NCBI RefSeq assembly: GCF_963921235.1
Contig: NC_086097.1
Span: forward strand, 161,884,001-161,948,000
DNA: 64,000 nt
Direction of reading: 5' to 3'
Source: Mobula hypostoma
Taxonomy: Eukaryota
The notes below the pieces were generated by a model. That model made no database searches. It saw only the letters and a program-made list of their open reading frames with translations, and was not told the origin of the DNA. Below are positions 9,157 to 58,075 of the stretch, one piece after another. The position numbers and the translations under genes are program-made. Numbering within the stretch: position 1 is the stretch's first letter; every line of letters starts with the position of its first letter.

Positions 9157-9192
9157 AGTCGACGTTTCAGGCCGAGACCCTTTGTCAGGACT
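9157..9192 (-). ncRNA. Minimal hammerhead ribozyme, core mutated (CUGACAA)
   Basis: AGUC-CUGACAA-AGGGUCUCGGCCU-GAAA-CGUC-GACU; G8->A, probably inactive. Confidence 0.7.
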
Positions 9193-10062
9193 AACCGAAG
9201 GAAGAGTTAGTAAGAGATTTGAAAGTGGGAGGGGGAGGGGGAGATCCAAAATGATAGGAGAAGACAGGAGGGGGAGGGATGGAGCCAAGAGCGGACAGGT
9301 GATTGGCAAAAGGGATATGAGAGGATCATGGGACAGGAGGTCTGGGGAGAAAGACAGGGGGGGGGACCCAGAGGATGGGCAAGGGGTATAGTCAGAGGGG
9401 CAGAGGGAGAAAAAGGAGAGTGAGAGAAAGAATGTGTATATAAAAATAAATAACGGATGGGGTACGAGGGGGAGGTGGGGCATTAGCGGAAGTTAGAGAA
9501 GTCGATGTTCATGCCATCAGGTTGGAGGCTACCCAGACGGAATATAAGGTGTTGTTCCTCCAACCTGAGTGTGGCTTCATCTTTACGGTAGAGGAGGCCG
9601 TGGATAGGCATGTCAGAATGGGTTACAGTAGAGGAGGCCGTGGTCTGTCCACGGCCTCCTCTACTGTAAAGATGAAGCCACACTCAGGTTGGAGGAACAA
9701 CACCTTATATTCCGTCTGGGTAGCCTCCAACCTGATGGCATGAACATCGACGACTCTAACTTCCGCTAATGCCCCACCTCCCCCTCGTACCCCATCCGTT
9801 ATTTATTTTTATACACACATTCTTTCTCTCACTCTCCTTTTTCTCCCTCTGTCCCTCTGACTATACCTCTTGCCCATCCTCTGGTCCCCCCCCCACTTGT
9901 CTTTCTCCCCAGACCTCCTGTCCCATGATCCTCTCATATCCCCTTTGCCAATCACCTGTCCAGCTCTTGGCTCCATCTCTCCCCCTCCTGTCTTCTCCTA
10001 TCATTTTGGATCTCCCCCTCCCCCTCCCACTTTCAAATCTCTTACTAACTCTTCCTTCAGTT

Positions 10063-10098
10063 AGTCCTGACGAAGGGTCTCGGCCTGAAACGTCGACT
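10063..10098 (+). ncRNA. Minimal type I hammerhead ribozyme (intact core)
   Basis: Stem I AGUC/GACU, CUGACGA, stem II AGG..CCU, GAAA, minimal palindromic helix III ACGU, GUC cleavage triplet (cut after 10094). Confidence 0.85.
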
Positions 10099-16926: not shown

Positions 16927-17079
16927 CCATACATTATAAAGCAGTAGACTAAGATTAATTAAAATACATTTAGGCACAATTATTCTACAGCTTTTTTCAC
17001 CCTTTCTTTCTTTCATCTCTCCTCATTGTGCTTGAATCCCACTTGATATATTGTTTGGAGCTTCAGTACCACAAGTGGT

Positions 17080-17185
17080 AAACATAAAATACTCTGCAGA
17101 TGTTGGGGTCAAAGCAACACTCACAACACGCTGGAGGAACTCAGCGGGTTCCCAACCTGCTGAGTTCCTCCAGCGTGTTGTGAGT
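17080..17185. mobile_element. Mini palindromic PLE tail insertion
   Basis: 27-bp perfect inverted repeat ACTCACAACACGCTGGAGGAACTCAGC; TSD AGTACCACAAGT(G/C)GT at 17065-17079 and 17183-17197. Confidence 0.8.
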
Positions 17186-17204
17186 ACCACAAGTCGTTCT
17201 TTGT

Positions 17205-22729: not shown

Positions 22730-24870
22730 CAACCAGTATGGTAGAGCTGAGGATGAGTCAACAGGTTTACAAGTAGATGATGGGTGTAACATGAATGTGA
22801 GGAAGGACAAGTGGAGACAGAGCAAAGAGTTAAATTGTACATCAGAGGCAAAATTCAAAAGAATGCAGGACTGAAGGTGCAGTTTTTAAATCCGTGCAGC
22901 ATTCGGAAAATGGTGAATGAACTCGTGGCACAAATAGAGATTGGTCGGTATGAAGTTCTGGGCATCACTGAGTTCTGGCTGAAAGGCGGCCATAGTTGGG
23001 AGCTTAACATTAAAGGATATACTTTGTATCGAAAGGACAGGCAGGAAGGCATTGGCTCTTTTGGTAAGAGATGGAATTAAATCTTTAGAAAGAGCTGACA
23101 TAGGGTCAGAGAATTTTGAATCTTTGTGGGTGAAGTTAAGAAACTGTGAGGGTAAAAAAATAAATCATTATGGGAATCATGAAATTCTGCACCCTTTTTT
23201 CTCCAAACAGACCTTTGCTCATTGCAGCCGAAAAGTTCTATTCAAAAGGTTCAAAGGAACATCTATAACAAGCCTGATGCATTTTGGAAACAAGTCCTGT
23301 GGACTGATGAAGTTAAAATAGAACTTTTTGGCTGCAATGAGCAAAGGTCTGTTTGGAGAAAAATGGTGCAGAATTTTATGAAGAGAGCCTCTCTCCAACT
23401 GTTCAGCACGGGGGTGGATCGATCATGCTTTGGGCTTGTGTTGCAGCCAGTGGCATGGGGAACATGGGTAGAGGGAAGAATGAATTCAATTAAATACTAG
23501 CAAATTCTGGAAGCAAACATCACACCATCTGTAAAAAAGCCGAAGATGAATAGAGGATGGCTTCTACAACAGGATAATGAACCTACACACACCTTAAAAT
23601 CCACAATGGACTACCTCAAGAGGCGTAAGCTGAAGGTTTTGCCATGGCCCTAAACCTCAAAAGAGCAGTGCATGCAAGACGGCCCAAGAATCTCACAGAA
23701 CTGGAAGCCTTTTGCAAGGAAGAATGGGCGAAAATCCCCCAAACAAGAATTGAAGGACCCTTAGCTGGCTAGAAAAAGCGTTTACAAGCTGTGATACTTG
23801 CCAAAGGGGGTGTTACAAAGTACTGCCATGCAGGGTGCCCAAACTTTTGCTTCAGGCCCTTTTGCTTTTTTGTTATTTTAAAACTGTAAAACATGGAAAT
23901 AAAAAAAGTTTTCTTGCTTAAAATATTAAAGGAATGCATCATCTTTAACTTTAAGCCTTTTAGAAATCAGTTCATCTTTTACTTGCTTAGCTATTCACAG
24001 TAACAGAAATTTTGACCGAGGGTGCCCAAACTTGTGCATGCCACTGTAGGTCTCCAAATAGTAGCTAAGGTGCGGGGTTGAGATTGCAAAGTGAGCTGGA
24101 AAAGGTGTATAATAAAGGTAATGTCACAATTGTAATGGGGTCTTCAGGAGGGGGACTGGGAAAATCAGGTTCGTGTCAGATCGCAAGAAAGGGAATTTGT
24201 TGAATGCCTACAAGATGGCTTTTAGAGCAGCTTGTGGTTGTACCTACTTGGGGAAAGGCTATCTTCAATTGGGTGTTGTGTAATGACCTAGATCTTATTA
24301 GGGAACTTAAGGTAAAGGAACCCTTACGAGGCAGTGATCATAATATGATTGAATTCATTCTACAGTTTGAGAGGGAGAAGCATATGTCACATGTATCAGT
24401 ATTGCAATGGAATAAAGGGAATAACAGAGGCACGAGAAAGGAGCTTGCCCGGGTGGATTGGAGAAGTATCCTGGCGGGGATGATGGCAGAGCAGAGGTGA
24501 CTGAAGGTTTTGGGAACGTTTCACAAGGCGCAGGATAGATATGTCCCACAGAAGAAGTTGTTCTCAAATGGCAGGGCTAAGCAACCATGGCTGACCAGGG
24601 AAGTTGAGGACTGTATAAATGCCAAGGAAAGGGCATATAACGAAGCAAAAGTGAGTGGGAGGTTGGATGATTGGGAAGTTTTTAAAATCCAACAAAAGGC
24701 AACTAAAAAAGCTGTAAGAAAGGAAAAGGTGAAATATGAGGACAAATTAGCCAATAATATGAAGTGGGATACTAAAAGTTTTTTTCAGTTATGCAAAGAG
24801 TAAAAAGGAGAGTTGATATTGGACCACTGGAAAATTATGCTGGTGAGGTAGTAATGGGGGACAAAGAAAA
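22730..24870 (+). mobile_element. CR1 ORF2 endonuclease region, split by Tc1
   Basis: LNPCSIRKMVNEL, GITEFWL, GYTLYRKDR, GSDHNMIEF, WLTREV motifs. Confidence 0.85.
23181..24046 (+). mobile_element. Tc1 (IR/DR type) transposon, 5'-deleted
   Basis: FWKQVLWTDEVKIELFG and LQQDNEPTHT transposase motifs; right IR with DRs GGGTGCCCAAACTT ending CACTG|TA. Confidence 0.88.
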
Positions 24871-33900: not shown

Positions 33901-34893
33901 CGTTCTACAAGCCTCAGTTATTTCTTGGTTCATCGCCTCTGTCACTGCAATATTTTTATTAGGCAGCCTGTAGACAACTCCCACCAATGATTTTCTTTTC
34001 CTTTTACTATTCTTAATCTCTACCCAAATGGACTCAACATTCTGCTCCGTAGATCTTATATCATCTCTCTCAATCACCCTGATCTCATCCTTAACTAAGA
34101 GTGCCACCTCACCTCCTTTGCCTTCCTGCCTATCTTTCCATATTACCTGATGCCCTTGGATATTTAATTCCCAGTCATCTCCACCTTGCAACCAGGTTTC
34201 TGTAATGGCCACCAAATCATATGCCTTGGTACTGATCTGTGCCACAAGTTCACTAATCTTGTTTCTAATACTACGAGCATTTAGATAAAGTGCCCTTATA
34301 CTCATTATCCTTTTAGAATCTAGTGACCTATGCGATTTTTGCTTTTTACTTTTATGCACTCTACTCGTACTTTTTTCTTCTCTAACATTAGCTTTGGTGT
34401 TCTGTATCACTTCCCTCTTCTTTTCTGTGTGGGTTCCCATCCCCCTGCCATACTAGTTTAAAGCCTCCCCAACATCTCTAGCAAACAATCTCCTTAGGAT
34501 ATTGATCCTGGCTGTGCCCAGATGTAGATCGTCTGGACAGTACTGGTCCCATCTCCCCCAGAAGTGGTTCCAATGCCCCAAGAATCTGAAACCCTCCCTC
34601 CTGCACCACTGCTCAAGCCACATATTCATTCTAGCTATCCTGCTATTCCAACTCTGGCTAGCACATGGCACCAGTAATAATCCTGAGATTATTACCTTTG
34701 AGGTCCTACTCTTTAATTTATCTCCTAGCTCCCTAAATTCAGCTTGTAGGGCTTCATCCTGCTTTCTTCCTTTATTGTTAGTACCTACATGCACCACGAC
34801 AGCTGGCTGCTCACCCTCCCCTTTCAGAATTTCCTGCAGCCTCTCCGAGACATCTCTGACCCTTGCACCCGGGAGGCAACACACCATACGGGA

Positions 34894-35368
34894 ACACACA
34901 TCAAAGTTGCTGGTGAACGCAGCAGGCCAAGCAGCATCTATAGGAAGAGGCGCAGTCGACGTTTCAGGCCGAGACCCTTCGTCAGGACTAACTGAAGGAA
35001 GAGTGAGTAAGGGATTTGAAAGCTGGAGGGGGAGGGGGAGATGCAAAATGATAGGAGAAGACAGGAGGGGGAGGGATAGAGCCGAGCGAGTTTGAGTCAA
35101 AGTGTGGTCGAAAAGTTGAAGGGCCGAAGAAATTACAGATGGGGAGCAGTGAGAGATGGTTTCACTGAACTCCCGTCGAAGAGAGGATCTAAACTTCTTC
35201 GGTGTAGGCATCACCGGAAGAGGCTTCGCAGTAGTGAATTTAAACGCAAACAACAGGAATTCTGCAGATGCTGGAAATTCAAGCAACACACATCAAAGTT
35301 GCTGGTGAACGCAGCAGGCCAAGCAGCATCTATAGGAAGAGGCGCAGTCGACGTTTCAGGCCGAGACC
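34894..35368 (-). mobile_element. Internally deleted direct-repeat PLE (5' pLTR remnant, tail, ORF start, 3' pLTR)
   Basis: Two direct pLTR pieces flank MPTPKKFRSSLRREFSETISHCSPSVISSALQLFDH; CGGGA duplicated at 34889-34893 and 35369-35373 in CR1 ORF1. Confidence 0.8.
34954..34989 (-). ncRNA. Minimal hammerhead ribozyme (intact core)
   Basis: AGUC-CUGACGA-AGGGUCUCGGCCU-GAAA-CGUC-GACU. Confidence 0.85.
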
Positions 35369-35617
35369 CGGGAGTCCAGTTTGCGGCCACAGAAGCTCCT
35401 CTCTATTCCCCTTACCATGGAATCCCTTACCACAACAGCTCCACCACCAGGTCAGCTCAAGAATCTGATGGTTGTAGGCAAGTAGCTATTCTTGTACATG
35501 GTCGTGCCTTCTTTTGTTTTAAGATGTACTTTAAAAGCACTAAACAACATTTTTGAGCACCTCTAATTAGCTGACCACCTTTACCTATGGATTTTATTTT
35601 CCTCTTATGGTTTGAAA

Positions 35618-37737
35618 TCTATTTACTATTAAAACTCTCATCCTCTGTCTGTTTGTCTGTTTGTGACCTCCAATTAGTGCAAATGGTGCATTACAGCGGC
35701 ACTCGTTTTGGCCTAAATTGAATTAAAATGCACTAACTTAGAGAATGCAGGCAAAGTTCAGGGTTATATGTTCGTATAAAATTGCTCATTCGCCAAAATA
35801 AACAGGCTGCCTTTTAACCCGAGACCCGATCGGCCATCATGGAAATCGGGACGCGACAGCCCGACGCATGTGCACGGCCAGTTGCAGCAGCGACACCTAC
35901 CGGAGCAAAAGGGCAGGGCAGCTCTATTTCGTGGGGTCACATTCTGCTAATCACCACCATCAACATGTGCAGGATTGGGACAGATCTAACTGCCACCCAT
36001 CAATAAGAGGTAATTAAATCTTATTGTAACGACATACTTTGAGACACCCATAAAACCCTTTGCTGCAGTCAAAAGACAGCGGTGACTATATCACGTCCAT
36101 TTAGCAGAACGCCAACCACATCATCAAGGATAATCAACATCCTTTGGTGTTACTGTTTCGTATCTTCTATCCAGCATTAGGGTAAAAAAATAGTCAGCCG
36201 AATTATGCCACGTGGAAAGGGAAGGGAGACATTATAGTCAAGACCCAGGATCAAAGAGTCAGGACAAAAAAAGATGAGAGAAGAAGAGACAGAGGAGGAG
36301 AGGCATGCACATCTCCAGGATCAGAGATAAACAACAAACAGCAGAAGAGCTGAAGAGATGGGGGATGAAAGGGCTACATGTCTCCAGAATGACAAGGAGA
36401 GGCACAAAGGTGGCAGAGCAACTCTTACAACACACTGGAGGAACTCAGCAGGTCGGGCAGCATCCATGGAAATGATCAGTCAACGTTTCGGGCCAGCCGG
36501 AACCCTTCATCAGGACTGAAGAGGGGAGGGGCAGAGGCCCTATAAAGAAGGTGGGGGGAGGGTTGGAAGGAGAAGGCTGGTAGGTTCCAGGTGAAAAAAC
36601 AGTAAGGGGAAAGATAAAGGGGTGGCGGAAGGGAAGCAGGGAGGGGATAGGCAGGAAAGGTGAAGAAGGAATAGGGGAAAGCACAATGGGTAGTAGAAGG
36701 AGGCGGAGCCATGAGGGAGGTGATAGGCAGCTGGGGAGGGGACAGAGTGAAATAGGGATGGGGAAGGGAGGGGGAGGGAATTGCCGGAAGTTGGAGAATT
36801 CAGTGTTCATGCCCAAGGGCTGGAGACTTCCCAGACGGTATATGAGGTGTTGCTCCTCCAACCTGAGTTTGGCCTCATCCTGGCAGTAGAGGAGGCCATG
36901 TATGGACATATCTGAATGGGAATGTGAAGCAGAGTTGAAGTGGGTGGCAACCGGAGATCCTGTCTGTTGTGGCGGATGGAGTGCAGGTGCTTGATGAATC
37001 GTGTTTCACCGATGTAGAGGAGGCCACACTGGGAGCACCAGATGCAATAGATGACCCCAACAGACTCACAAGTGAAGTGTTGCCTCACCTGGAAGGACTG
37101 TCTGGGCCCTGAATGGTGGCAAGCGAGGAGGTGTAGGGACAGGTGTAGCACTTACGCTTACAGGGTTAAGTGCTGGGTGGGAGATCTGTGGGGAGGGACA
37201 GGTGGACCAGGGAGTTGCCGAGGGAACGATCCCCGCAGAAAGCGGAGAGGCGTGGAGGGGGAAAGATGTGTTTAGTGGTGGGGTCCTGTTGAAGGTGGTG
37301 GAATATGGAGGATAATGTGCTGAATCTGGAGGCTGGTGGGGTGGTAGGTGAGGACAAGGGGAACTCTGTCCCTGTTGTGGTGACAGGAGGATGGGGTGAG
37401 GGCCGAAGTGCGGGAAATGGGAGAGATGTGGGTGAGGGCATCATTGATGATGGCAGAAGGGAAACCATGATCCTTAAAGAAAGAGGACATTTGAGATGTC
37501 CTGGATGGCAGATAAGCCAGAAATGATGCTATCAAAAGTGTCCTTCGTTAAACAAGGAGGAGCTATATTTGCTTTGCTATGCGTCGTTCTTCTTTAATAA
37601 ACTGAGGTTTACTCCTTCAGTTTCCAAGGCAAAGCGATACCAACAGTATTCAGGAAAATTTAATGTTCATTCTGGTCACATCAGACTGCACTACCCTTCT
37701 CTCAAAAGGTGCCCCAACAGGTCACCCTGTTGTCTAT
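35618..37737 (+). mobile_element. Probable non-autonomous Helitron
   Basis: A|TC start with TCTATTTACTATTAAAAC and (TGTC/TGTT)n; E/R-rich ORF remnant (ETEEERHAHLQDQR); 3' hairpin GGTGCCC..GGTCACC followed by CTAT (degenerate CTRR); no TSD. Confidence 0.5.
36418..37505 (-). mobile_element. 5'-truncated Neptune-type PLE (second subfamily) with hammerhead at 36477-36518
   Basis: GVIYCIWCSQCGLLYIGET GIY-YIG domain; CAGUC-CUGAUGA..GAAACGUU-GACUG; 7-bp TSD TGGCAGA (36411-36417, 37506-37512). Confidence 0.88.
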
Positions 37738-37744
37738 ATTAGCT

Positions 37745-38450
37745 AAATCATGAAGTTGCTGCAGCTCAGAAACCAGCCATTCAAGTCAAGTTTGTATTAG
37801 TTCTGCATAAGGCAGCCACATCAGTCCTCATCCCCTTGTTCTTTCCCCAGGGACCTGCAAGTTCTTCCTCAAATATATGAAAATTTAAAAAAAAAACCAG
37901 ATAAAGAAAACTGAAATCAAAGCAGCCTGGCCCAAGGCAGTAACTTGGCAGTAAATTTCAGATCAGATCTATTCCCTGAATATAAAAGTAATTCTCTCAG
38001 TCCTCTTGTGTCGTAGGCCTTCGATTATATTTCTATACTCCCATTCATTAACTCATCTCTGCTGATGGAAATAGTTGCATCAGTCAACACCATCTAAGAC
38101 TCATCTTGATCTTTCACGTAACTACTAAATCTCTTCTCAATATTCCTTCCTGCAAGGAGTATACACCCAGCTTCTCATTGTAGTTGAAATCCTTCGTCCC
38201 TCGAATCACGCTCTTAAATTATCTCTGCCTCCCCTCTAAGACCTTCATGTCCCAGAGTGAAAATGAAGGGATATGGTTTTTCAGTTGTGGTCAAACATTA
38301 GTGTTTTATGGATGTTCAACATAACCTTTCTGCTTTTATAATTACTGGGATCCTATATAGTTCACCAACTGCTCTTTCAATGTGCCCTGATGGTTTCAGA
38401 AATTTATACTAATTTGCATGCAAGTCCTTTGTTCCTTCACGTTTTGGAAC
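37745..38450 (-). mobile_element. Highly degenerate CR1 3' part
   Basis: Residual CR1 3'UTR and RT C-terminal nucleotide motifs. Confidence 0.45.
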
Positions 38451-39048
38451 TTCATGTCTTTGTTGCTTTTTATTTTTGGCAAATTGTATAACTTCATCCT
38501 TCTGTATTAAACTTTATCTGCCAATTGCCTGTTCGTTCTGCCAGCCTGTCTGTTACCCATCCATATCATTACTAGCAAACTTCCAAGCCTTGTTATTGGT
38601 GCAGTTTTTGTATGGTTGGGCACCTGCTGCTGGGTTATGTTGTTTGTTCCAACATAGTCACTTGATAAGAGCCTGGAGTACTTTGGCAAAGCCTACTGTG
38701 GCATCAGGGCTGTCTTAGCTTCTGCAGTAGTATACAGGTTCCCTTTGGCAGCAAATGAGACTGTCCCCAAGCTCATTAATTGTCAGACGTGTCAGTATTA
38801 TAATTCTTTCTGAATGTCTTTGATGCTCACAATAACATAAGAACTGTTTTAAAAATATTTACATATTAAAGTTCAATAAATGACATTGCAATAACTTCTC
38901 AAAACAAAACGATCTCCATTTAGGTTAACTTAATGAATGCAGCTTCAGTGGACAGACTTTCCTGGAAGAACTGGGAACTTGGAAGCAGATTCTGCTGTTC
39001 TGTTGGACTTAAGTCTACTGAGCAATATTGGGACAGTTATAACCCATG

Positions 39049-39202
39049 CAAATACACTCAAAATGCTGGAGGAACTCAACAGGCCTTGTAGCATCTATGG
39101 AAAAGAGTATTTTCCATAGATGTAGCCTGGCCTGCTGAGTTCCTCCAGCATTTTGTGTGTTGCTTGGATTTTTAGAATCTGCAAATTTTCTCTTGTTTGT
39201 GA
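39049..39202. mobile_element. Mini palindromic PLE tail insertion (opposite orientation)
   Basis: Inverted AAAATGCTGGAGGAACTCA..CATCTATGGAAAA arms; TSD TATAACCCATG (39038-39048, 39203-39213). Confidence 0.82.
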
Positions 39203-39893
39203 TATAACCCATGGCAGTGGGTTAAAAGGTGCTGCTTATGGTTGAGTTGGGACACAGGATTTGACCCGTTCAGAAAACTGTTAGCGTCACATAGTGTGAA
39301 CATCAACGAGTATTAGAAATCTCAATTTCCTCTTTCACTTTTCCCATTCCTACTGCTATTGATACTTTAATTCCATGGGTTTCAAGTTTGCTATTCAGCC
39401 TTTTGCATAGGACGTCATCTTCTGAAATGCATGCAGGTGATATTTATTGCATTCTTTTGTTTCTGACTGTTGTGAATTTGTTTCCATATTTAGTGATTTT
39501 TATTTTTATAAAAATTATGAGTTCCATATTCAAATTAAATTCTCTTCCAAGCTGTAATTTGACTTCCTAAAGATGTTTGCTGTTTCATCAATAAAAACAC
39601 AATCAAGTTAGTTAAATGCAGTTTTCCTTAAATAATTCAATGTTGGCTCTTCCTTAACAACGTGAGCTTCAAAAGTAGTTTTTAATGTTTTCTGTGAACA
39701 TTGGTTCTAAGTGTTTCTCCTCAGCTAAGGACTTGTAATTTCCTGGTATTTCCTTACCTCCCCTTTGAACAACTTTTGTGTTACTTTTTAAACGCAAACA
39801 ACAGGAATTCTGCAGATGCTGGAAATTCAAGCAACACACATCAAAGTTGCTGGTGAACGCAGCAGGCACGGCAGCATCTGTAGGAAGAGGTGC

Positions 39894-39929
39894 AGTCGAC
39901 GTTTCAGGCCAAGACCCTTCGTCAGGACT
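39894..39929 (-). ncRNA. Minimal hammerhead ribozyme (intact core)
   Basis: AGUC-CUGACGA-AGGGUCUUGGCCU-GAAA-CGUC-GACU. Confidence 0.85.
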
Positions 39930-41833
39930 AACTGAAGGAAGAGTGAGTAAGGGATTTGAAAGTTGGAGGGGGAGGGGGAGATCCAAAATGATAGGAGAAG
40001 ACAGGAGGGGGAGGGATAGAGCCAAGAGCTGGACAGGTCTTAGGCAAAAGGGGATACGAGAGGATCATGGGACAGGAGGTCCGGGAAGAAAGACAAGTGG
40101 GGGGGGAACCCAGAGGATGGGCAAGAGGTATATTCAGAGGGACAGAGGAAGAAAAAGGAGAGTGAGAGAAAGAATGTGTGCATAAAAATAAGTAACAGAT
40201 GGGGTATGAGGGGGAGGTGGGGCCTTAGCGGAAGTTAGAGAAGTCGATGTTCATGCCATCAGGTTGGAGGCTACCCAGACGGAATGTTGTTCCTCCAACC
40301 TGAGTGTGGCTTCATCTTTACAGTAGAGGAGGCCGTGGATAGACATGTCAGAATGGGAATGGGATGTGGAATTAAAATGTGTGGCCACTGGGAGATCCTG
40401 CTTTCTCTGGCGGACAGAGCGTAGATGTTCAGCAAAGCGGTCTCCCAGTCTGCGTCGGGTCTCGCCAATATATAAAAGGCCACATCGGGAGCACCGGTGG
40501 GATCCCGTTGGAGGTTGCACGCATGCAGAACTCGTTGACTTTATTAACTTTGCCTCCAACTTTTACCCTGCCCTCAAGTTTACCTGGTCCATTTCCGACA
40601 CCTCCCTCCCCTTTCTAGATCTTTCTGCCTCTGTTTCTGGAGACAGCTTATCCACTGATGTCTACTATAAGCCTACGGACTCTCACAGCTATCTGGACTA
40701 TTCCTCTTCTCACCCTGTCTCTTGCAAAAACGCCATCCCCTTCTCGCAATTCCTCCATCTCCACCGCATCTGCTCTCAGGATGAGGCTTTTCATTCTAGA
40801 ACGAGGGAGATGTCTTCCTTTTTTAAAGAAAGGGGCTTCCCTTCCTCCACTATCAACTCTGCTCTTAAACGCATCTCCCCCATTTCACGTACGTCTGCTC
40901 TCACTCCATCCTCCCGCCACCCCACTAGGAATAGCGTTCCCCTGGTCCTCACCTACCACCCCACCAGCCTCCGGGTCCAACATATTATTCTCCGTAACTT
41001 CCGCCACCTCCAACGGGATCCCACCACTAAGCACATCTTTCCCTCCCCCTCTCTCTCTGCATTCCGCAGGGATCGCTCCCTACACAACTCCCTTGTCCAT
41101 TCGTCCCCCCCATCCCTCCCCACTGATCTCCCTCCTGGCACTTATCCGTGTAAGCGGAACAAGTACTACACATGCCCTTACACTTCCTCCCTTACCACCA
41201 TTCAGGGCCCCAAACAGTCCTTCCAGGTGAGGCAACACTTCACCTGTGAGTCGACTGGGGTGATATACTGCGTCCGGTGCTCCCGATGTGGCCTTTTATA
41301 TATTGGCGAGACCTGACGCAGACTGGGAGACCGCTTTGCTGAACATCTACGCTCTGTCCGCCAGAGAAAGCAGGATCTCCCAGTGGCCACATCCCATTCC
41401 CATTCTGACATGTCTATCCACGGCCTCCTCTACTGTAAAGCTGAAGCCACACTCAGGTTGGAGGAACAACACCTTACATTCCGTCTGGGTAGCCTCCGAC
41501 CTGATGGCATGAACATCGACTTCTCTAACTTCTGCTAAGGCCCCACCTCCCCCTCGTACCCCATCTGTTACTTATTTTTATGCACACATTCTTTCTTTCA
41601 CTCTCCTTTTTCTCCCTCTGTCCCTCTGAATATACCTCTTGCCCATCCTCTGGGTCCCCCCACCCCCCGTCTTTCTTCCCGGACCTCCTGTTCCATGATC
41701 CTCTCGTATCCCCTTTTGCCTATCACCTGTCCAGCTCTTGGCTCCATCCCTCCCCCTCCTGTCTTCTCCTATCATTTTGGATCTCCCCCTCCCCCTCCTA
41801 CTTTCAAATCCCTTACTCACTCTTCCTTCAGTT

Positions 41834-41869
41834 AGTCCTGACGAAGGGTCTCGGCCTGAAACGTCGACT
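41834..41869 (+). ncRNA. Minimal hammerhead ribozyme (intact core)
   Basis: AGUC-CUGACGA-AGGGUCUCGGCCU-GAAA-CGUC-GACU. Confidence 0.85.
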
Positions 41870-42132
41870 GCACCTCTTCCTACAGATGCTGCCTGGCCTG
41901 CTGCGTTCACCAGCAACTTTGATGTGTGTTGTTTGTGTTACTTTTGCTATTTTTTAGTCCTCTGGCATCTCCCCTAAGGAAGTTCTGCAAAAATCACCCT
42001 CATCTCTTTTGGCAACAGAAAACATTCCATTCTGCATTTTAAATTTTGAGCAAAGCTCAAAAGTTCTTGTACCCTTTTGACATCAGTTTTTTCCCTCATA
42101 CGTCATTTCTACTTCCTCAACAAGAAATATTT

Positions 42133-42325
42133 AAAGTTCAAAGTAAATTTATTGTCAAGTATATACATGTTACTATATACTACCCTGAGATTCATTTTCT
42201 TGCAGATATTCACAGCAGAATAATGCAATGTAATACTATCAATGAAAAACTGCACACAACCAAAGTGCAAAAGAGACAAACGGTGCAAATACAAAAATAA
42301 TTAATAAGTAATATGGAGAGTATTC
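42133..42325 (-). mobile_element. Rex1-type 3'UTR fragment
   Basis: AAAGTTCAAAGTAAATTTATT..ACCCTGAGATTCATTTTCTTGC, as at 3575 and 53385. Confidence 0.6.
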
Positions 42326-43215
42326 TTCCTTGATACAAAGTAATCATTTAGAATTGCATATGTTCATGCTTCCCACCCCGCTTGTATGCTGATTCACATG
42401 CCATTGTTAATATATGTCTGTATTAAAGGACACCCATAAAGTTAATTGTCTATGGTTCTCTCAATGCCAGCTCCAGCTACAGTTCGTGTTGCTACTGGAT
42501 TACTCTACAAATCTTTTCTTTTGACAACAGCTTTTGATCTTGTAATTGTTTATGCTGGAATTTCAGCCCAGGGGCCTGATATTTATGTGCACAGAAGTGC
42601 TGCTTCTAGAATTAAGCAGTGCTCTTGGGTGTGATTGTAATTGGGCATGTTGCCATGAGAAACTTGGGAGGGGAGAGTGCCTCTCTGTGGAAGGCCTTTT
42701 GAAAAGCCTTTGTGAAATTTTGGAGGAGTGGTCAGAAGAAAGAATCTAATTGTGACCTGGATGAGTTTGAAGAAAAAAAGTTATTCTGAATAGTTGGGGA
42801 ATGGTGGAAGAGGGGAATACCTTGGTTTGAACTGTGTAAAGTGACTTCAAGTAGTTTGTAAAAGATGAAATTTGGTCACGGAGAAACTCCTGTGCTTTTT
42901 ATAAAATTAAAAATATAATACTTTCTAAAAATGCTAATGAAGTAGAGTAACGATCATTTAGAATGTGAGAGCTAGCTTAAAAAATCAGATAGCTCATTTC
43001 TGTATTTCTACGTTTCAAATGGCATGTATAAGAATACAATCTTCGCATCCTGTTCTTATTACTGTTTTAGAAAATGAAAAAGGTTAAGATCAGTTCAGCA
43101 AATTTGTAATAAACAAAGCGAGTTTTGCTCGAAAGGGTTGTTTTTAATTAATGAGGTGCTTGAAGGAATTATGCCACTCCCTGGAAGACCAAGGGAAAAC
43201 AGAACTTTAAGAATG

Positions 43216-44439
43216 TTTCTATCTCTGAAGGCAGCTCACCCACTGATGTCTATTATAAACCCATGGACTCTCACAGCTATCCATACTGTACCTCTTCCCA
43301 CCCTGTTACTTGTAAAAACGCCATCCCCTTCTCTCAATTCCTCTGCCTGCACCGCATCTTCCCTCAGGATGAGGCTTTTCATTCCAGAACAAAGGAGATG
43401 TTCTTGTTTCAAAGAAAGGGCCTTCCCTTCCTTCACCATCAATGCTCCCCTCAACCACATCTCTTCCATTTCATGCATGTCTGCTCCTACCCCATCCTCC
43501 CGCCACCCTACCAGGGATAGGGTTCCTCTTGTCCTCACCTACCACCCCACCAGCCTTTGTGTCCAGCACATAATTCTCTGAAACTTCCGCCATCTCCAAC
43601 GGATCCCACCACCAAACACATCTCCGCCCCCCCCCCACTTTCTGCTTTCCGCAGGGACCGCTCCCTATGCGACTCCCTTGCCCATTCATCCCTCCCAGTG
43701 ATCTCCCTTCTGGCACTTATCCTTGCAAACGGAACAAGTCCTACACCTGCCCCTACACCTTCTCCCTCACTACCAGTCAGGGCCCTAAACTGTCTTCCAG
43801 GTGAGGTGACACTTCACCTGTGAGTTTGTTGGGGTCATATACTGTGTCCGGTGCTCCCTGTGTGGCCTCCTGTATGTCGGTGAGACCCGACATAGATTGG
43901 GAGACCAAATTGCAGAGCATCTATGTGCTGTCCGCCAGAAAAAGTGGTATCTCCCAGTAGCCATCCATTTTAATTCCACTACACATTCCCATCCTGATAT
44001 GACTGTCCATGGCCTCATCCACTGTCGTGATGAGGCCACACTTAGCTTGGAAGAACAACAACACCTTATATTCTGTTTAGAACCTCCAATCTGATGGCAT
44101 GAACATCAATTTCTCGAACTTCTGGTAATGCCCTTCCCCATCCCTGTTTCCCCCTCTCACCTTATCTTCTTGCTCATCCATCATCTCCTTCTGGTGCTGC
44201 TCCCACTTTTCTTTCTTCCGTAGCTTTTTTTGTCTCTTTCAGCAATTTACTTCCCAACTGTTTACTTCATCTCTCCTCCTTCAGGTTTCACCTATCACCT
44301 TTTGTTTCTCCCTCTCCTTCCCCCCATCTTTTAAATCTCAGGTTTTTTTCTCCAGTCCTGCCGAAGTGTTTCGGCCCGAAACGTTGACTGTACTCTTTTC
44401 CTAGATGCTGTCTGGCCTGCTGACATTTTGTGTGTGTTG
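43216..44439 (+). mobile_element. Older 5'-truncated Neptune-type PLE with mutated hammerhead (44354-44389)
   Basis: Frameshifted RT thumb/GIY-YIG; core CUGCCGA; ends at GTGTGTTG; imperfect TSD TAAGAA(A)TGTT. Confidence 0.85.
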
Positions 44440-45129
44440 TATAAGAAATGTTGGTAATGCAAAAGATCTTTGCTGATTGTTGTTAATAATAAGGCAGTAA
44501 GAAATTGATAATACTGATGGAAAATTAAGCAAAGAATTGTTTTTGACTAACATTATTTTGTTTGAATTCCATTAAAGTTAATAAAGATTAGTAACTATGG
44601 TATTTCAGAAGTAATTTGAATTTCTAAAATCCTATTCTTGTGCCAGTAAGAATTTGTTAAAGATAATTCATAAAAACTATTTTGTATACAATCATTGTTA
44701 AGTTGTAAATATAAAAATAACTAAGCATTCTTTGAATTATATAAGAAATTTTATTTTGAAGAGCCTCTAAATTACAACTTCTCTAAGGAACAAAAGCATA
44801 GCCTATTTTTCCTTTACAGAACATTATAATAGGCATGTATGAAAACTAAAAGAATGCAGATACTAGAAATATAAAACAAAAACAAAAACAAAATTCAGGA
44901 AGCGCTCAGACTTCCGAATTTGTGCAAAAAGAAACAACCAGGTGTGACCTATGAATTTCAAATTGCACATCTCAGTTTCCACAAGTTTTCATTCCAGACA
45001 CTGTCCTTCCTTCCTGAAGATCTGTAGTATGCGGGCTTCTTTGAACATGACCCATTTTGCCCATATGAATTAATTTGTATCATTGCTACTCATTCACTTA
45101 TAAAATTGCATAAGATACAAAACTGCAAG

Positions 45130-45370
45130 TTTGAAAATCAAACTTGTCATATGATCAGAGCTAGCAGCTTGTTCCAGGTTGCCACCATCCTTTGCGTGGA
45201 AAATTTTTTCTAAGATCTACAAATTTCTCCCCTCTCACCTTAACCTGTGTCCTCTAGTTGTATATGCCAATGTTCTGAGACCAGGATGCTATCAATCCTA
45301 TCTCTGCTGTATATAATTGTAGAAACCTCTGAGGTCATCCTTAAGTATGCTGCATTTAAGTAAGAAGAAA
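45130..45370 (-). mobile_element. Degenerate CR1 3' fragment
   Basis: TTCCAGGTTGCCACCATCCTTTGCGTGGAAAA..CCCCTCTCACCTTAACCTGTGTCCTCTAG. Confidence 0.5.
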
Positions 45371-47838
45371 CTGATGGGATAGAATTTGTCAAATGTGTTC
45401 AGGAAGGTTTCCTTAATCAGTACATAGAAGTCCCAACGAGAGAGTTTACGATACTTGATCCACTATTAGGGAATGCGACCAAGTTGTTGACAGAAGGTTG
45501 TGTAGGGGAACACTTTGCATCTAGTGATCACAATGCCATTTGTTTCAAAGTAAGTATGCAAAAAGATGGATCTGGGCCGTGGGTTGAGATTCTGAATTGG
45601 AGAAAGGCCAATTTTGTTGGTGTCAGAAAGGATCTGGCATATGAGGATTGGATTGAAATTTTGAGAGTACTAATCTTGTATATGCCTGTCAGAATAAAAG
45701 GTGAAGTTAGCAGATGTAGGAAAACTTGGTTTTCAAGAGATATTGAGGCCCTGGTTAAGAAAAAAAAGTGTATTGCAGGTATAGGCAGGTAGGAACAAAT
45801 GAGGTGATTATGGAGTATAAGCAATACAAAAGAACATTTGAGAAAGAACTCAGGAAGGGGTAAAAGAAGGCATGAGTTTGCCCAAATAAACCAGGTGAAG
45901 GAGAATTCTAAGGGATTCTACAAATATGTTAAGAGCAAAAGGATCGCAGGGGACAAAATTGGTCAGCTGGAAGATCAGAATGGTAATCCATGTGTGGAGC
46001 CAAAAGAGATGGGGGGAGATCATAAATAATCTTTTTTGCATCTGTATTTACTCAGCAGACAGACAGAAAGTCTATAGAAATGCAGTAAAGTGGCACCAAC
46101 TCCATGGATCTTATACATATTACAAAGCAGAAGGTGTTTGCTGTCCTGAAGCAAATTAGGATAGATTACTCCCCAGGGCTTGACAAAGTGTTTCCTGAGA
46201 AATTGCTAGGGCCCCAGCAGAGATATTTAAAGCATCCTTAGCGACAAGTGAGGTACCAGTGGATTGGAGGATAGCCAATGTTGTTCCGCTGTTTAAGAAA
46301 GGCTCTAGAAATAATCCAGGAAATTAAAGTCTTTTTCTTTTTAAATCTTTTTATTGAATTAGTACACAAAAGGCAAACCAAATAGACACTAATACACTGT
46401 TGCAATATAAATTTACAAGAGATATTAATACACAAAATAAGTTAGTACAAACAGTGCAGTTTGGATATAAAATAATAAGGTAATATAATAGTATACTAAT
46501 TTTCCATACATATCAATAAAGCGAAGAAAACCCCCCCCAAAAAAACCCACCGTGCAACTAATCTAAAAAGCAAAGCAAAGCAATGGGCTAACTAGGTATC
46601 AAGTAGACTTAAACAACTTAAAACAATCACGTCCTCAAACCCAACCTCCATTAAAAACAGTTAAAAAGCAAGAAGGGAATGTAAATATGGGCAAAGAGAA
46701 AAAAAAATACATTAAATGAAAATGTTGAATAAAAGATCTCCAGGTCTGTTCAAATTTAACTGAAGTATCATAAAGATTACTTCTGATTTTCTCCAAATTT
46801 AAACATAGTATCGTCTGAGAAAACCAAAAGAACGTAGTTGGGGCATTAATCTCCTTCCAATGTTGTAAAATACATCTTTTCGCCATTAAAGTAAGAAATG
46901 CAATCATTCTACGGGCTGAAGGGGAAAGATTATTGGAAATTTTAGGTAATCCAAAGATAGCAGGAATAGGACGGGGAGAGATATCTATATTCAATACCTT
47001 TGAAAAAATATTAAAAATGTCTTTCCAAAAAGTTTCCAAAGTAGGACAGGACCAAAGCATGTGAGTTAAGGAAGCAATCTCCCCATGACATCTGTCACAA
47101 AGAGGATTAATATGAAAATAAAAACGAGCTAATTTATCTTTAGACATATGTGCTCTATGATTTTAAATTGAATTAGGGAATGTTTGGAACAGATAGAGGA
47201 AGTATTGACTAGTTGTAAAATATGTGCCCAGTCATCCGCCGAGATAATAAAGCCCAATTCCTTTTCCCAATCTGACCTAATCTTATCGAATGGAACTTTC
47301 TTAAGTTTCATGATAATATTATAAATAATAGCCGTTACACCTTTCTGACATGGGTTAAGGTTAATTATAGTATCTAAAATATATGTAGGAGGTAACATCG
47401 GAAAGGAAGAGAGTATAGTACTTAGGAAATTTCTAATTTGGAGATATCTAAAAAAATGTATTCTTGGTAAGTTATATTTGTTAGATAATTGTTCAAAAGA
47501 CATAAGGGAGCCATCTAAAAATAAATCCAAAAACCATGATATACCATTAGTCTTCCAAATTTGAAAGGCACGGTCTGTGGAAGAGGGGGGAAAGAATATG
47601 TTGCCTAAAATAGGAATCGCAAGCCCAAATTGATTAAGATCGAAAAATTTTCGGAATTGAAACCAAATACGTAAGATATATTTAACTATCGGGTTACAAA
47701 CCTGTTTGTGGCGTTTCAAATTGAAAGGAAGAGAAGAACCTAAAATGGAGCCAAGTGCATAACCTTGAGCAGATTGTAATTCCAATACTACCCACTTAGG
47801 AATGGATAATGTATCTTGATCAAGTAACCAAAATTTCA

Positions 47839-49028
47839 ATTCCTCCGTCTCCGCCGCATCTGCTCTCAGGATGAGGCTTTTCATTCAAGGACGAGGGAGA
47901 TGTCTTCCTTTTTTAAAGAAAGGGGCTTCCCTTCCTCCACTATCAACTCTGCTCTTAAACGCATCTCCCCCATTTCACGTACATCTGCTCTCACTCCATC
48001 CTCCTGCGACCCCACTAAGAATAGGGTTCCCCTGGTCCTCACCTACCACCCCACCAGCCTCCGGGTCCAACATATTATTCTCCGTAACTTCCGCCACCTC
48101 CAACAGCATCCCACCACTAAGCACATCTTTCCCTCCCCCCGTCTCTCTGCATTCCGCAGGGATCGCTCCCTACACAACTCCCTTGTCCATTCATCCCCCC
48201 CCATCCCTCCCCACTGATCTCCCTCCTGGCACTTATCCGTGTAAGCGGAACAAGTGCTACACATGCCCTTACACTTCCTCCCTTACCACCATTCAGGGCC
48301 CCAAACAGTCCTTCCAGGTGAGGCAACACTTCACCTGTGAGTCGACTGGGGTGATATACTGCGTCCGGTGCTCCCGATGTGGCCTTTTATATATTGGCGA
48401 GACCCGACGCAGACTGGGAGACCGCTTTGCTGAACATCTACGCTCTGTCCACCAGAGTAAGCAGGATCTCCCAGTGGCCACACGTTTTAATTCCACATCC
48501 CATTCCCATTCTGACATGTCTATCCACGGCCTCCTCTACTGTAAAGATGAAGCCATACTCAGGTTGGAGGAACAACACCTTATATTCCGTCTGGGTAGCC
48601 TCCAACCTGATGGCATGAACATCGACTTCTCTAACTTCCGCTAAGGCCCCACCTCCCCCTCGTACCCCATCTGTTACTTATTTTTATGCACACATTCTTT
48701 CTCTCACTCTCTTTTTTCTCCCTCTGTCCCTCTGAATATACCTCTTGCCCATCCTCTGGGCCCCCCCCCGTCTTTCTTCCCGGACCTCCTGTCCCATGAT
48801 CCTCTCGTATCCCCTTTTGCCTATCACCTGTCCAGCTCTCGGCTCTATCCCTCCCCCTCCTGTCTTCTCCTGTCATTTTGGATCTCCCCCTCCCCCTCCA
48901 ACTTTCAAGTCCCTTACTCACTCTTCCTTCAGTTAGTCCTGACGAAGGGTCTTGGCCTGAAACGTCGACTGCACCTCTTCCTACAGATGCTGCTTGGCCT
49001 GCTGCATTCACCAGCAACTTTGATGTGT
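47839..49028 (+). mobile_element. 5'-truncated Neptune-type PLE inserted in L1 ORF2
   Basis: PCKRNKCYTC linker + intact GIY-YIG (GVIYCVRCSRCGLLYIGET..RFAEH..EEQHLI..GMN); 15-bp TSD GTAACCAAAATTTCA (47824-47838, 49029-49043). Confidence 0.93.
48935..48970 (+). ncRNA. Minimal hammerhead ribozyme (intact core)
   Basis: AGUC-CUGACGA-AGGGUCUUGGCCU-GAAA-CGUC-GACU. Confidence 0.85.
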
Positions 49029-52000
49029 GTAACCAAAATTTCATGTGTTGAATATTAATTGCCCAATAATAGAATCTAAAGTTAGATAATGTCAAACCTC
49101 CATCTCTCTTAGCTTTCTGTAGATGTATTCTACCCAATCTCGGGTTTTTATTTTGCCAAATAAATGAAGAAATTTTAGAGTCAACTTTGTCAAAGAAAGG
49201 ATTTTGGAACAAAAATGGGTAGTGCCTGAAATATATATAAAAATTTTGGCAGAATAAACATCTTAACAGCATTAATACAACCAATCTAAGTTAAATAAAG
49301 TGGAAACCATTTAAATGGAAGTTGAGTAATGTGATCAATTAAGGGTAGGAAATTAGTCTTAAATAAATCCTTATGTTTACAGGTAATTTTAATCCCAAAA
49401 TATGAAAAATTGTTATTAACCAATTTAAATGGGAGGTTCTGATATAAGGGAACTTGCTTATTAATCAGGAAAAGTTCACTCTTACTGAGATTTAACTTAT
49501 AACCCGAAAAAAGACTAAATTGTGCTAATAAATCTAAAGCAGCAGGAATAGATTTTTGAGGATTAGAAATATATAAAAGTAAGTCATCAGCATAAAGTGA
49601 TACTTTATGAGACTTTAAACCAGGAGTTATACCAATAATATTTGGAGATTCTTGAATAGCAATTGGAAGAGGTTCTAATGCAATATCAAATAATAAAGGA
49701 CTAAGAGGACAACCTTGTCTGGTACCTCGAAAAAGAGGGAAAAAAGATGAGTTTAAAGAGTTAGTACGAACTGAGGCCATAGGAGAATGATATAACAATT
49801 TGATCCAGGACATAAATTTCGGGCTGAAATTAAACATTTCAAGCACCTTAAATAAGTAAGGCCATTCGACTCTGTCGAAGGCTTTTTCAGCGTCTAAGGA
49901 AATGACGCATTCAGGATCATTTTGTGACGGGGTATAGACAATGTTTAACAGCGTACGAATATTATAAAAAGAGTAACGACCTTTAATAAAACCCATTTGG
50001 TCTTCCGAAATAATATAACGAAGTGCTTTTTCTAATCTGTTTGCTAATAATTTAGAAAAGATTTTAGAGTCAACATTTAATAAGGATATTGGTCTATAAG
50101 ATGCACATTGAGCAGGATCTTTATCTTTCTTTAATATTAAAGAGATCGATGCTGTATAAAAGGATTCGGGAAGTTTACCAAGTTTTAATGAGGCCTCCAG
50201 AACCCTGAATAACCAAGGGATTAATGAGGATGCAAAAAATTTATAAAATTCCGCGGTAAACCCATCAGGACCAGGAGCTTTCCCCGGGTTCATAGAAAAA
50301 ATAACATTCTTAATCTCATCAGTGGTAAAGGAAGTGTCTAACATAGAAGATATATCATGTGAAATCTTAGGGAAACCTAGGTTATCTAAAAAGTCATACA
50401 TATATTTAGAGTCTGGTGGAGACTCTGATTGATATAAGGAGGAATAAAAGTCAAAAAAGGATTGATTAATCTCAGCTTGATCAAATATCAGTTGATCTTT
50501 TTGATTATAAATCTGATTAATTTGAAATTTAGTATAGTTGGTCTCCAACTGATTAGCCAACAGTTTACCAACTTTGTCACTATGTATATAAAATTCACTT
50601 CTTGTTTTCATTGATTGATTTGCAATAGAGGACGAAAGTAATAAACTGTGTTCCATTTGAAGTTCAGTTCTTTGTTTATACAACTTCTCAGAGAGAGCTG
50701 TAGCATATTTCTTATCAATTTCCTTAATCTTGTCCACAATAACCAGCTCCTCCTCCTTCAACCTCTTCCTCAAAGCAGCAGAATACGAGATGATCTGACC
50801 TCGAATATAAGCTTTAAAAGTATCCCAAAGGGTGTTCATGGATATATCCTCTGTACAGTTGATTGTAAAAAAGAGATCAATCTGTTCATTCATAAAGTTA
50901 ACAAAATCCAAGTCCTGAAGCAACAGTGAATTAAAACGCCATTGTCTATTATTTTGTGTATTGGCCAATATTTTAATAGAAAGTTTAAGTGGAGCATGAT
51001 CTGAAATGGTTATAGAGTCATATTCACATTTAACCACTGAAGAAATAAGATGAGAGTCAATAAAAAAAATAATTAATTCTTGAATAGGAATGATGAACAT
51101 GTGGAAAAAAAAGAAAAATCTTTTTCCTGAGGATGCAAAAAACGCCAAATGTCCGTCGACCCGGAATCTGAGAGAAATGAATTAATCAAGGTTGCAGATT
51201 TATTGGGTAGAGTCCGTAAAGGAGCCAAATTGTCCAAAAATGGGGATAAACAAGTATTAAGATCCCCGCTCCAGATTAGTGAAAACTCATTCAAATTCGG
51301 GAACAAATTAAATAATGATTTATAAAATTCCAGACAATCCATGTTGGGAGCATAGACGTTAACCAAAACTACCTTTGTATTAAAGAGTAAACCACTAACC
51401 AATAGATATCTACCATTCGGATCAGAAATAATATTGTGTTGTACAAAAGTGCTTGAGGGATCTGTAAAAATAGAAACGCCACGAATTTTAGTGTTGGAAT
51501 TCGAATGGAAGTGTTGACCCTTCCAGAACTTAAAAAAACGTAGTCTGTCCCCCCTCCGCACATGGGTCTCTTGTAGAAATAGAATATGTGCTTTAAGTCT
51601 CCAGAATACTTTAAAGACTTTTTTCCTTTTTATTGGATGATTAAGACCGTTAGTATTCCAAGAGACAAAATTAATAGTAGACTCCATAATCCCTAAAGTC
51701 AACCCTCGAATAAGGGAGGATTGACAATAGGTTCAACCCACGAACCCGGAAAGGGAACAGAATAAACAAGAGACAACAGGAAAGAGAACGCGACTAATAC
51801 TTCGGTAATATAAGTAGCCCAAGAAAAAAGAAAAACTAAAGTGAAGCCCCCCCCACCCCGTAACACCAAAGCTAAATCTAAGATAGACCAGCGAGAAAGA
51901 AGCGAGCAATAGAACTACCCCCATGACTTCCGATGGACGCTCACTAAAAAAAAGTGTATATATAAAAAGATCAGCTAAAGTTATAAAACAGTGAAGGAAT

Positions 52001-56458: not shown

Positions 56459-58075
56459 CAGGTTTCCCCCGCCATCCGAAGGTAGAGCGTTCCTATGAAA
56501 TGGTTCATAAGCCGAAATGTTGTAAAGCGAAGAAGCAATTACAATTTATTTATATGGGAAAATTTTGTGAGCGTTCGCAGACCCAAAAATAACCTACCAA
56601 ATCATGCCAAATAACACATAAAACCTAAAATAACAGTAACATATAGTAAAAGCAGGAATGATATGATAAATACACAGCCTATATAAAGTAGAAATACTTT
56701 TCCACAATCATTACTGCACTGTTCTCCATAGCGAAAATCTCACACAAGCGCCGTCGACAGAAAATCTCACGCAAGTGCTGTTGGCAAAAACACGGGGCAA
56801 GCACTCTCCGGTAACCTTTAACCTATGAAGCTGCCAAATCATACCAAATAACACGTAAAAATACCCAGCCTATATAAAGTAGAAATAATGTATGTACAAT
56901 GTAGTATCACTTACCGGAATTGGGACAGCGCTGAGCACACTGATGATGGTGTGTTAGGCTGACTCATTGCAGGTTGGGGTGGTGCAATGGCCCCCACCCT
57001 CCAGGCCACCAACCAATACTGATCCGCAAAGCATGCAGGAGTGCAGCGGTCGCCAGGAGGCACACAGCACATCTTTAAGAAAAAAGCTGAAGCAAACATG
57101 CTAATTAATTAGATGCCGCCCGACACATTATTGTCGGCCTAGGTCAGTGCTGATTTCCGATTGCGTCGTCTCTGATCTGGGCCAACAATTACGTGTTGGG
57201 CGGCACCTAATTAATTAGCATGTTTATTTCAGCTTTTTTCTTAAAAATGTGCTGTGTGCCTCCCGGCTACTGCTGCATCCTCCGCGAATCCGTATCTGTC
57301 CGTGGCCTGGGTGTTGGGGTGGTGGGACACTGGGGTGTCATCTTGTCATCGTCTGTTTCCATTAGGGCAGGAAGGTCATCTTCTACCTCTGCCTGCCTCG
57401 ATGTCGAAGGTCGAGGTTCATCGTCTGCTGTGGCTGATGTGGAAGGCTTGCTTGACTGCTGAGCCTCGCGCATTTTTCTATCACACAGTTCTTTGTAAGG
57501 ACTCAAACCATCTTGCAAATATCCTCTAAATCTACGTACCCTTTCAAAATTAAAGTCGTACTTTATCATTGCAGCGAAAATCTCACGCAGTTGCTTTACG
57601 TTCAGTTCGCTACTGCATTCAGTTTCGATTGTTATCCTTTTTTCTTCCAATTGCATCAGCTCTTCATCTATCAGTTCTTGGTTATGGGATGCCAAAACCT
57701 CTACAACATTATCTTCATCAACTTCCACAAGCCAAACTCACTTTGTCCTTACTTCGTTCACCATGATCAAAACGCTTAATTATATCTAGTTTTACGCTAA
57801 GTGTAACACCCTTATGAGTCCTTTTAGGCTTTTCCAATACCATAGAACTCATCTTGCAAATGACTGCTGACAGGCATGTGTTTAAGCAATGCCGGCGAGA
57901 ATACTGTTCCGAATCCGGGGAGAGCCGCTGCTTGGGGCATGCTGATTTTTTCACACGCTGATTTTTTTTCTTAACAGTGAAAACACCTTCTGAAAGCGAA
58001 AACATGGTACTAATGTAGATCTTTCATAACAGTAAGGTTTCGTAAAGCAAACGTTCGAAAAACGGGGGACACCTG
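56459..58075 (-). mobile_element. Internally deleted Tigger/pogo DNA transposon
   Basis: TIRs CAGGT(T/G)TCCCCCG, TA TSD (56457-56458, 58076-58077); CENP-B-type HTH start (KGVTLSVKLDIIKRF) joined to acidic C-terminus (DNVVEVLASHNQELIDEELMQL); DDE domain absent. Confidence 0.88.
56985..57332. mobile_element. Palindromic hAT MITE nested in Tigger
   Basis: About 160-bp imperfect inverted arms (GCACATCTTTAAGAAAAAAGC..CTAATTAATTAG..GCCGCC), CA(A/G)TG termini; homologous to 19537-19696. Confidence 0.7.

Follow-up and report, generated by a model that had tools for sequence, protein, structure and literature searches.

The head-to-head arrangement is already a textbook feature of Penelope-like retroelements: an inverted, truncated copy lies within one target-site duplication (TSD), and a tail is present on one side only (PMC3846280, PMC8557442). 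How it forms is still debated, because the account in PMC3846280 favours self-priming for inverted insertions, whereas work on an anole Penelope-like protein points to the priming of both strands by a predicted dimer. In vitro, that protein cuts and extends both strands, with two reverse transcription (RT) start sites bounding the tail; its dimer is an AlphaFold2 prediction (PMC11167929). The available text of PMC8557442 calls the features behind tandem and inverted structures undefined. In L1 retrotransposition, opposite ends can be extended from different RNAs, and opposite-orientation inserts occur among nine two-transcript cases (PMC11702581). If the arms of single insertions often stem from different source variants, self-priming would be out and a two-template reaction in; such a reaction, if true, would also explain element recombination and host-sequence capture. 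A search of titles and abstract openings, which left most subscription papers uncovered, found no arm-against-arm allele tests in such insertions, and the available portion of bioRxiv 10.64898/2026.07.22.740005 contains nothing on inverted insertions.

Here we analyse one such insertion within a 64,000-nucleotide (nt) stretch of the Mobula hypostoma genome (contig NC_086097.1; hereafter, the window). An earlier note had described a minus arm and a plus arm bracketed by a 14-bp TSD, and this layout proved exact. The 14-mer TTTGTGTTACTTTT has precisely two occurrences in the window, at the outer borders of the element (Table 1), and was found twice in 0 of 100 shuffles. The left arm, including its tail, spans 39789–40497 (709 bp), and the right arm measures 1416 bp. 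Starting at the left duplication, the left arm extends the top strand in antisense; the right arm does so for the bottom strand, starting at the right duplication. Two outward-facing arms within one 14-bp duplication support a single insertion of a Penelope-like retroelement, in agreement with the identity and the single event that had been proposed, and the locus is an ordinary member of the published inverted, one-tailed arrangement.

Table 1 Features of the inverted insertion, in window coordinates
Feature	Position	Strand	Remark
Target-site duplication, left copy, 14 bp	39775–39788	+	
Tail, 43 nt, left arm only	39789–39831	−	Ends compared with the 35239–35369 copy, which continues beyond the tail
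Left arm: endonuclease end, 3′ region and pLTR end	39832–40497	−	Corresponds to element positions 41274–41931
Diagnostic site, T allele	40018	−	Left arm; partner of 41745
Junction piece, 20 nt	40496–40515	−	Reverse complement of 41006–41025
Right arm, 5′-truncated, tail-less, 1416 bp	40516–41931	+	
ORF remnant	40516–41538	+	Starts just past the YIDD motif and runs through the GIY-YIG domain
Poly-C tract, with 5 of 20 arm–arm substitutions	41655–41668	+	Left partner 40095–40108
Diagnostic site, C allele	41745	+	Right arm
Second hint	41799	+	Right arm T; left arm and the copies at 48841 and 35075 A; 9056 arms both C
Target-site duplication, right copy, 14 bp	41932–41945	+	

The arms are 96% complementary over their longest ungapped stretch of 460 nt, and 490 nt of the right arm (40516–41005) have no counterpart in the left arm. 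At the end of the left-arm tail, two further bases are common with the duplication. The centre of the palindrome is occupied by the junction piece, which has a 2-nt microhomology to the left arm and joins the right arm bluntly; since this piece derives from the region of 41006–41025, the left arm skips about 250 nt. The right-arm start was fixed by family contigs running on upstream (loose ends in runs X1, X5 and X9). The right arm has a private 15-nt deletion after 41386, and the left arm a private 7-nt deletion at 40285/40286; family contigs retain the 15 nt (loose ends 41387/41391). The arms thus differ by indels, as the earlier note had observed, but each indel is private to one arm among the window copies, which removes them as evidence on the templates.

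Side-by-side arms might also arise from two separate insertions at one spot, or from a misassembly that fused two haplotypes or copies. None of the contigs among the pieces listed crosses the central junction or covers a whole arm: an X1 contig matches 41908–42155 with 0 differences and extends only 24 letters into the arm, below the 31-letter threshold for a bridge, and the candidate relative-site contigs cover only 41975–42192 (X5) and 42064–42192 (X15). However, a single exact 14-bp duplication brackets both arms, and the same build recurs in all four palindromes described below. We consider such a composite origin highly improbable.

Protein comparisons support the classification of the element as an endonuclease-bearing Penelope-like element, in which RT is followed by a C-terminal GIY-YIG domain. 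The plus-arm ORF has 114 relatives of at least 467 residues, the best of which are cartilaginous-fish proteins with 60–67% identity, and the relative P0015, which has RVT_1 and GIY-YIG matches, aligns through its residues 457–800 to 40501–41514 at 48%. The RT core was lost by truncation; the right arm encodes only the end of RT plus the GIY-YIG ORF, with a premature stop at 41314–41316 from a CpG change. The YIDD motif is present in family contigs that extend upstream past 40516 (X1, X5 and X9 loose ends). The left-arm frame matched GIY-YIG at E 0.0036 and 18 bits, under the cut-off of 22.6, and an initial Pfam scan of the right-arm frames returned nothing relevant. The family was found in 4 of 4 sequencing runs, labelled as four organisms, and the summed contig depth reached 7.7 million at 41883–41943, compared with 17–24 in the next flank bins of X1, where depth does not equal copy number. 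A search of viral, metagenome and genome contigs for further flanked copies gave 0 matches. A very large, polymorphic family would let the template question be settled from one genome.

Each arm also bears what we take, by eye from its core boxes, to be a hammerhead-like minimal core (39897–39925 on the minus strand in the left arm, and 41838–41866 on the plus strand in the right arm). Rfam gave no hammerhead match within 34500–49500, and RNA folds of the pLTR end plus tail did not differ significantly from shuffles (z scores of −0.94, 0.89 and −1.08). Minimal hammerhead motifs without a stable helix III have been described, and motif pairs 100–700 bp apart on opposite strands have been noted (PMC4209133).

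We checked four TSD-flanked palindromes in the window, at 9042–10175 (hereafter the 9056 element), 17065–17194, 39038–39213 and 39775–41945, with duplications of 14, 12, 11 and 14 bp, respectively. In all four, a single arm carries the tail, an outcome with a probability of 0.06 under independent, even-odds choice of the end. The tail measures 43 nt in the 39775–41945 element and 39–40 nt in the 9056 element. The palindromes at 17065–17194 and 39038–39213 are miniatures made of related pLTR ends, with the tail on the left in the first and on the right in the second. The right arm of the 9056 element is nested within its left arm. Its junction (9623–9668) holds a 21-nt hairpin copy of the right-arm start with a 5-nt loop; this hairpin bears the right arm's allele and resembles a short snap-back before joining.

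Two young single-direction copies, at 47824–49043 (the 48841 copy; 15-bp duplication) and 34867–35374 (the 35075 copy; 9-bp duplication), end without a tail. The former belongs to the same subfamily as the 39775–41945 element and is inserted into, and runs opposite to, long minus-strand frames (46635–51732) that look LINE ORF2-like by eye. In the latter, a short pLTR piece and a tail are followed by an open stretch of 53 codons and a pLTR end of 194 nt, and a 9-nt additional copy of the start site (34876–34884) looks like an aborted first priming. Its 53-codon stretch has a weak likeness to the N-terminus of a relative (11/19, E 0.036). Its two pLTR pieces are identical (0 differences in 85), which shows that a tandem source can have uniform units. 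Related elements are also present as two older, diverged copies, at 36445–37505 and 43218–44440 (73–80% identity), with no clear duplication found. Two other self-inverted elements (23177–23381 and 56992–57319; arm identity 76–77%) are unrelated to the Penelope-like family and look like miniature DNA-transposon relics.

The anatomy bears on the number of priming events. The right arm's end matches that of both single-direction copies (49030 and 34893), and numerous X1 and X5 contigs exit the element at this same position, 41931 (loose ends). Because each arm holds sequence that the other lacks, and their ends are the two usual 3′ ends of the family, two primings are likely and a plain fold-back is not; two priming events, in one form or another, very probably took place. 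The simple fold-back, with one arm inside the other, was rejected, as the tail is on the left only and 40516–41005 on the right only. L1-type twin priming on one RNA was also rejected, as roughly 650 nt of one 3′ region are copied in both arms. In a more elaborate scheme, one cDNA would fold back and prime itself, and the unstable palindrome would then undergo asymmetric central deletions. This scheme can draw on the gap of 250 nt with its 20-nt remnant already present in the left arm, and on the junction hairpin and nested arms of the 9056 element. It would nevertheless require that 490 nt or more were lost in a second deletion, and that copying stopped at precisely the tail-less end at which single-direction insertions finish. 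It also predicts sister arms with shared private alleles, and among the window copies no derived allele outside the poly-C tract is confined to the two arms. Self-primed fold-back is accordingly improbable. The locus argues against plain fold-back; alone, it cannot carry the two-template claim.

The arms differ from one another by 20 substitutions in 651 sites, and from the 48841 copy by 18 in 659 (left) and 21 in 651 (right). The two arms of the 9056 element differ at 19 of 516 sites, and differences between the subfamilies number 30–35 in 512–559. A comparison of arm–arm with copy–copy divergence, which had been proposed as a check on the templates, favours neither side (20/651 versus 39/1310, Fisher P = 0.89); as judged from these sequences, the similar values fit a young, star-like subfamily. 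Apart from the poly-C substitutions, 13 of the 20 differences are private to one arm among the window copies, and two, at 41745 and at the CpG site 41852, have both alleles elsewhere.

The first of these two is the diagnostic non-CpG site on which the earlier note had mainly relied, and its alleles were read correctly: the T of the left arm is shared with the 35075 and 48841 copies, and the C of the right arm with both 9056 arms. The old 44254 copy has C opposite 41745, by eye, so C is likely ancestral. At 41799, the right-arm T is a transition from C and a transversion from A, and an ancestral C is favoured about fivefold over A. Position 41533 lies in a CpG, and its right-arm T makes up 25% of the depth in X1 and 72% in X5, compared with 9% of the depth at 41314, the other CpG site among the rows listed. 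The sites at 41745 and 41799 are separated by 54 nt that hold no diagnostic site, and on either side, at 41721 and 41811, the alleles are those of subfamily A.

Elsewhere the arms largely agree. Their alleles match at 9 of 11 informative non-CpG sites, and at all six sites within the left arm's span at which the family is polymorphic at 21–62% (among 40 of 66 rows). The right arm equals the 48841 copy at 11 of 11 ORF sites polymorphic at 17–57% (again among 40 of 66 rows), and is thus subfamily A throughout; the 40 rows do not include 41745 or 41799, and the family allele counts behind them are incomplete for X1 and X5. In the poly-C tract, an A-C-T-T interruption is common to the left arm and the 9056 right arm, across subfamilies, and both long palindromes have discordant arms there (41655–41668 and 40095–40108; 9884–9898 and 9355–9370; compare 48760–48772). 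Such cross-subfamily sharing needs recurrence or recombination. The CpG site 41852 joins the left arm with the 48841 copy and not with the 35075 copy. By these two patterns, homoplasy or mosaicism is present in the Penelope-like family.

A phylogeny of the arms, also proposed earlier and built here from the window copies, gave a mixed answer. In the free tree, the right arm falls outside a group of the left arm, the 48841 copy and the 35075 copy (support 59/64), and the same placement is recovered after masking 59 of 537 columns (CpG and poly-C; support 70/76). The arms thus fall in non-sister positions, yet a tree with sister arms is not rejected, either unmasked (p-AU 0.226, a cost of 0.65 log-likelihood units) or masked (p-AU 0.113, 1.38 units). 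In 2 of 2 long palindromes, both arms belong to one subfamily (support 100/99). Grouping the left arm with the 9056 right arm over the full length was rejected (p-AU 0.001). The claim that two distinct RNAs were copied at one target therefore divides: two primings stand by anatomy, and distinct templates are neither shown nor refuted.

The most direct competitor keeps the two primings and makes the templates identical at birth: a single stretch of RNA could have been copied from the two start sites with strand displacement, or one source could have supplied two identical units or transcripts. Every difference between the arms would then be a later mutation, with 41745 as a recurrent transition. 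With rates taken from private changes (0.71% per site for transitions and 0.13% for a given transversion), recurrence would produce one or more discordant informative sites with a probability of 0.08–0.12 per element, and 0.16–0.21 over the four window arms, or higher if the sites are fast. The two sites together gave a raw likelihood ratio of 383, which was dismissed as evidence, because the sites had been chosen after seeing the data and the rates were assumed equal. Identical templates are consistent with this recurrence probability, with the common subfamily of the arms in both long palindromes, with their agreement at 9 of 11 sites, with the unrejected sister-arm tree and with the one-sided tail in 4 of 4 palindromes, which suggests a coupled reaction. 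They require, however, that 41745 underwent one specific transition and 41799 a transversion, and leave the two arms with no derived allele of their own outside the poly-C tract. We regard identical templates as possible but rather unlikely.

Arms identical at birth could also have diverged by ectopic gene conversion from a family member, replacing at most 89 nt (41722–41810) of the right arm. Donors are abundant, and the two best hints lie close together with subfamily-A alleles on either side; against this, 41533 lies outside the patch, and we give this route only a slim chance. That the templates were not identical is suggested by 41745, 41799, 41533 and the free trees, with L1 as a precedent. 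Weighing against it are the unrejected sister-arm tree, the recurrence probability, the allele agreement between the arms, the homoplasy or mosaicism of the family and the uniform tandem units of the 35075 copy, and on this sequence pattern we hold it to be about evenly poised.

Our preferred reading, to which we assign a probability of about 0.5, is that both cut ends primed on two slightly different sister templates, and that the cDNAs were truncated and joined. Both 3′ ends of one 14-nt staggered cut would each have primed RT on a pLTR-bearing RNA stretch. By analogy with the anole reaction in vitro, the top strand would have begun at the far site, with the tail included, and the bottom strand at the near site. 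Both cDNAs would have ended early; the left cDNA would have jumped about 250 nt on the 2-nt microhomology, or lost that stretch later, and the two would have been joined bluntly at 40515/40516. Later decay would account for most of the 20 substitutions between the arms and for the two small indels, and the two template stretches would have been slightly different sister variants of one young subfamily. A more specific model would place two separate RNA molecules on an RT–endonuclease dimer, one per subunit and each primed by one cut strand at a different start site, and would have it form head-to-head insertions routinely; this locus would then preserve two source variants. The N-terminal portion through which such a protein would dimerise lies outside this locus. 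Two RNA molecules and two units of one tandem RNA are indistinguishable at this locus, so this dimer model stays tentative and somewhat doubtful. Two tandem-RNA units, or a later gene-conversion patch, would leave the same sequence pattern.

The closest described relatives in architecture are the Pen2a_Av and Pen2 derivatives of Adineta vaga (PMC3846280; scheme in the Fig. 2 legend of PMC8557442), which likewise carry a head-to-head, 5′-truncated inverted copy. They also share one TSD around the whole, a tail at one end, microhomology deletions and short palindromes at the junction. The TSD is 14 bp here and 8–10 bp in A. vaga Pen2, and the tail is 43 nt here compared with 31 nt, or 30–40 nt, in A. 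vaga Pen2 and the Penelope-like scheme. Furthermore, both arms are truncated here and there is no direct upstream pLTR. The available text of PMC3846280 and PMC8557442 makes no allele comparison between arms.

Poseidon of Anolis carolinensis (PMC11167929) resembles the present element in having RT with a C-terminal GIY-YIG domain, an AT-rich target and two 3′ ends separated by the tail, and its protein extends both strands, as two arms require. The ORF here is a dead remnant, in contrast to Poseidon, and the likeness is one of architecture. The Poseidon paper, in its available text, does not state whether one or two RNAs are used. In L1 twin priming, the two copied parts of the RNA adjoin and barely overlap, whereas the arms here copy the same 3′ region and lack a poly-A tail. 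Nevertheless, in L1 twin-priming and two-transcript inserts (PMC11702581), as in the reading that we favour for this locus, both ends of a staggered cut are extended and the cDNAs are end-joined, and L1 keeps a TSD of 12–18 bp, compared with 14 bp here.
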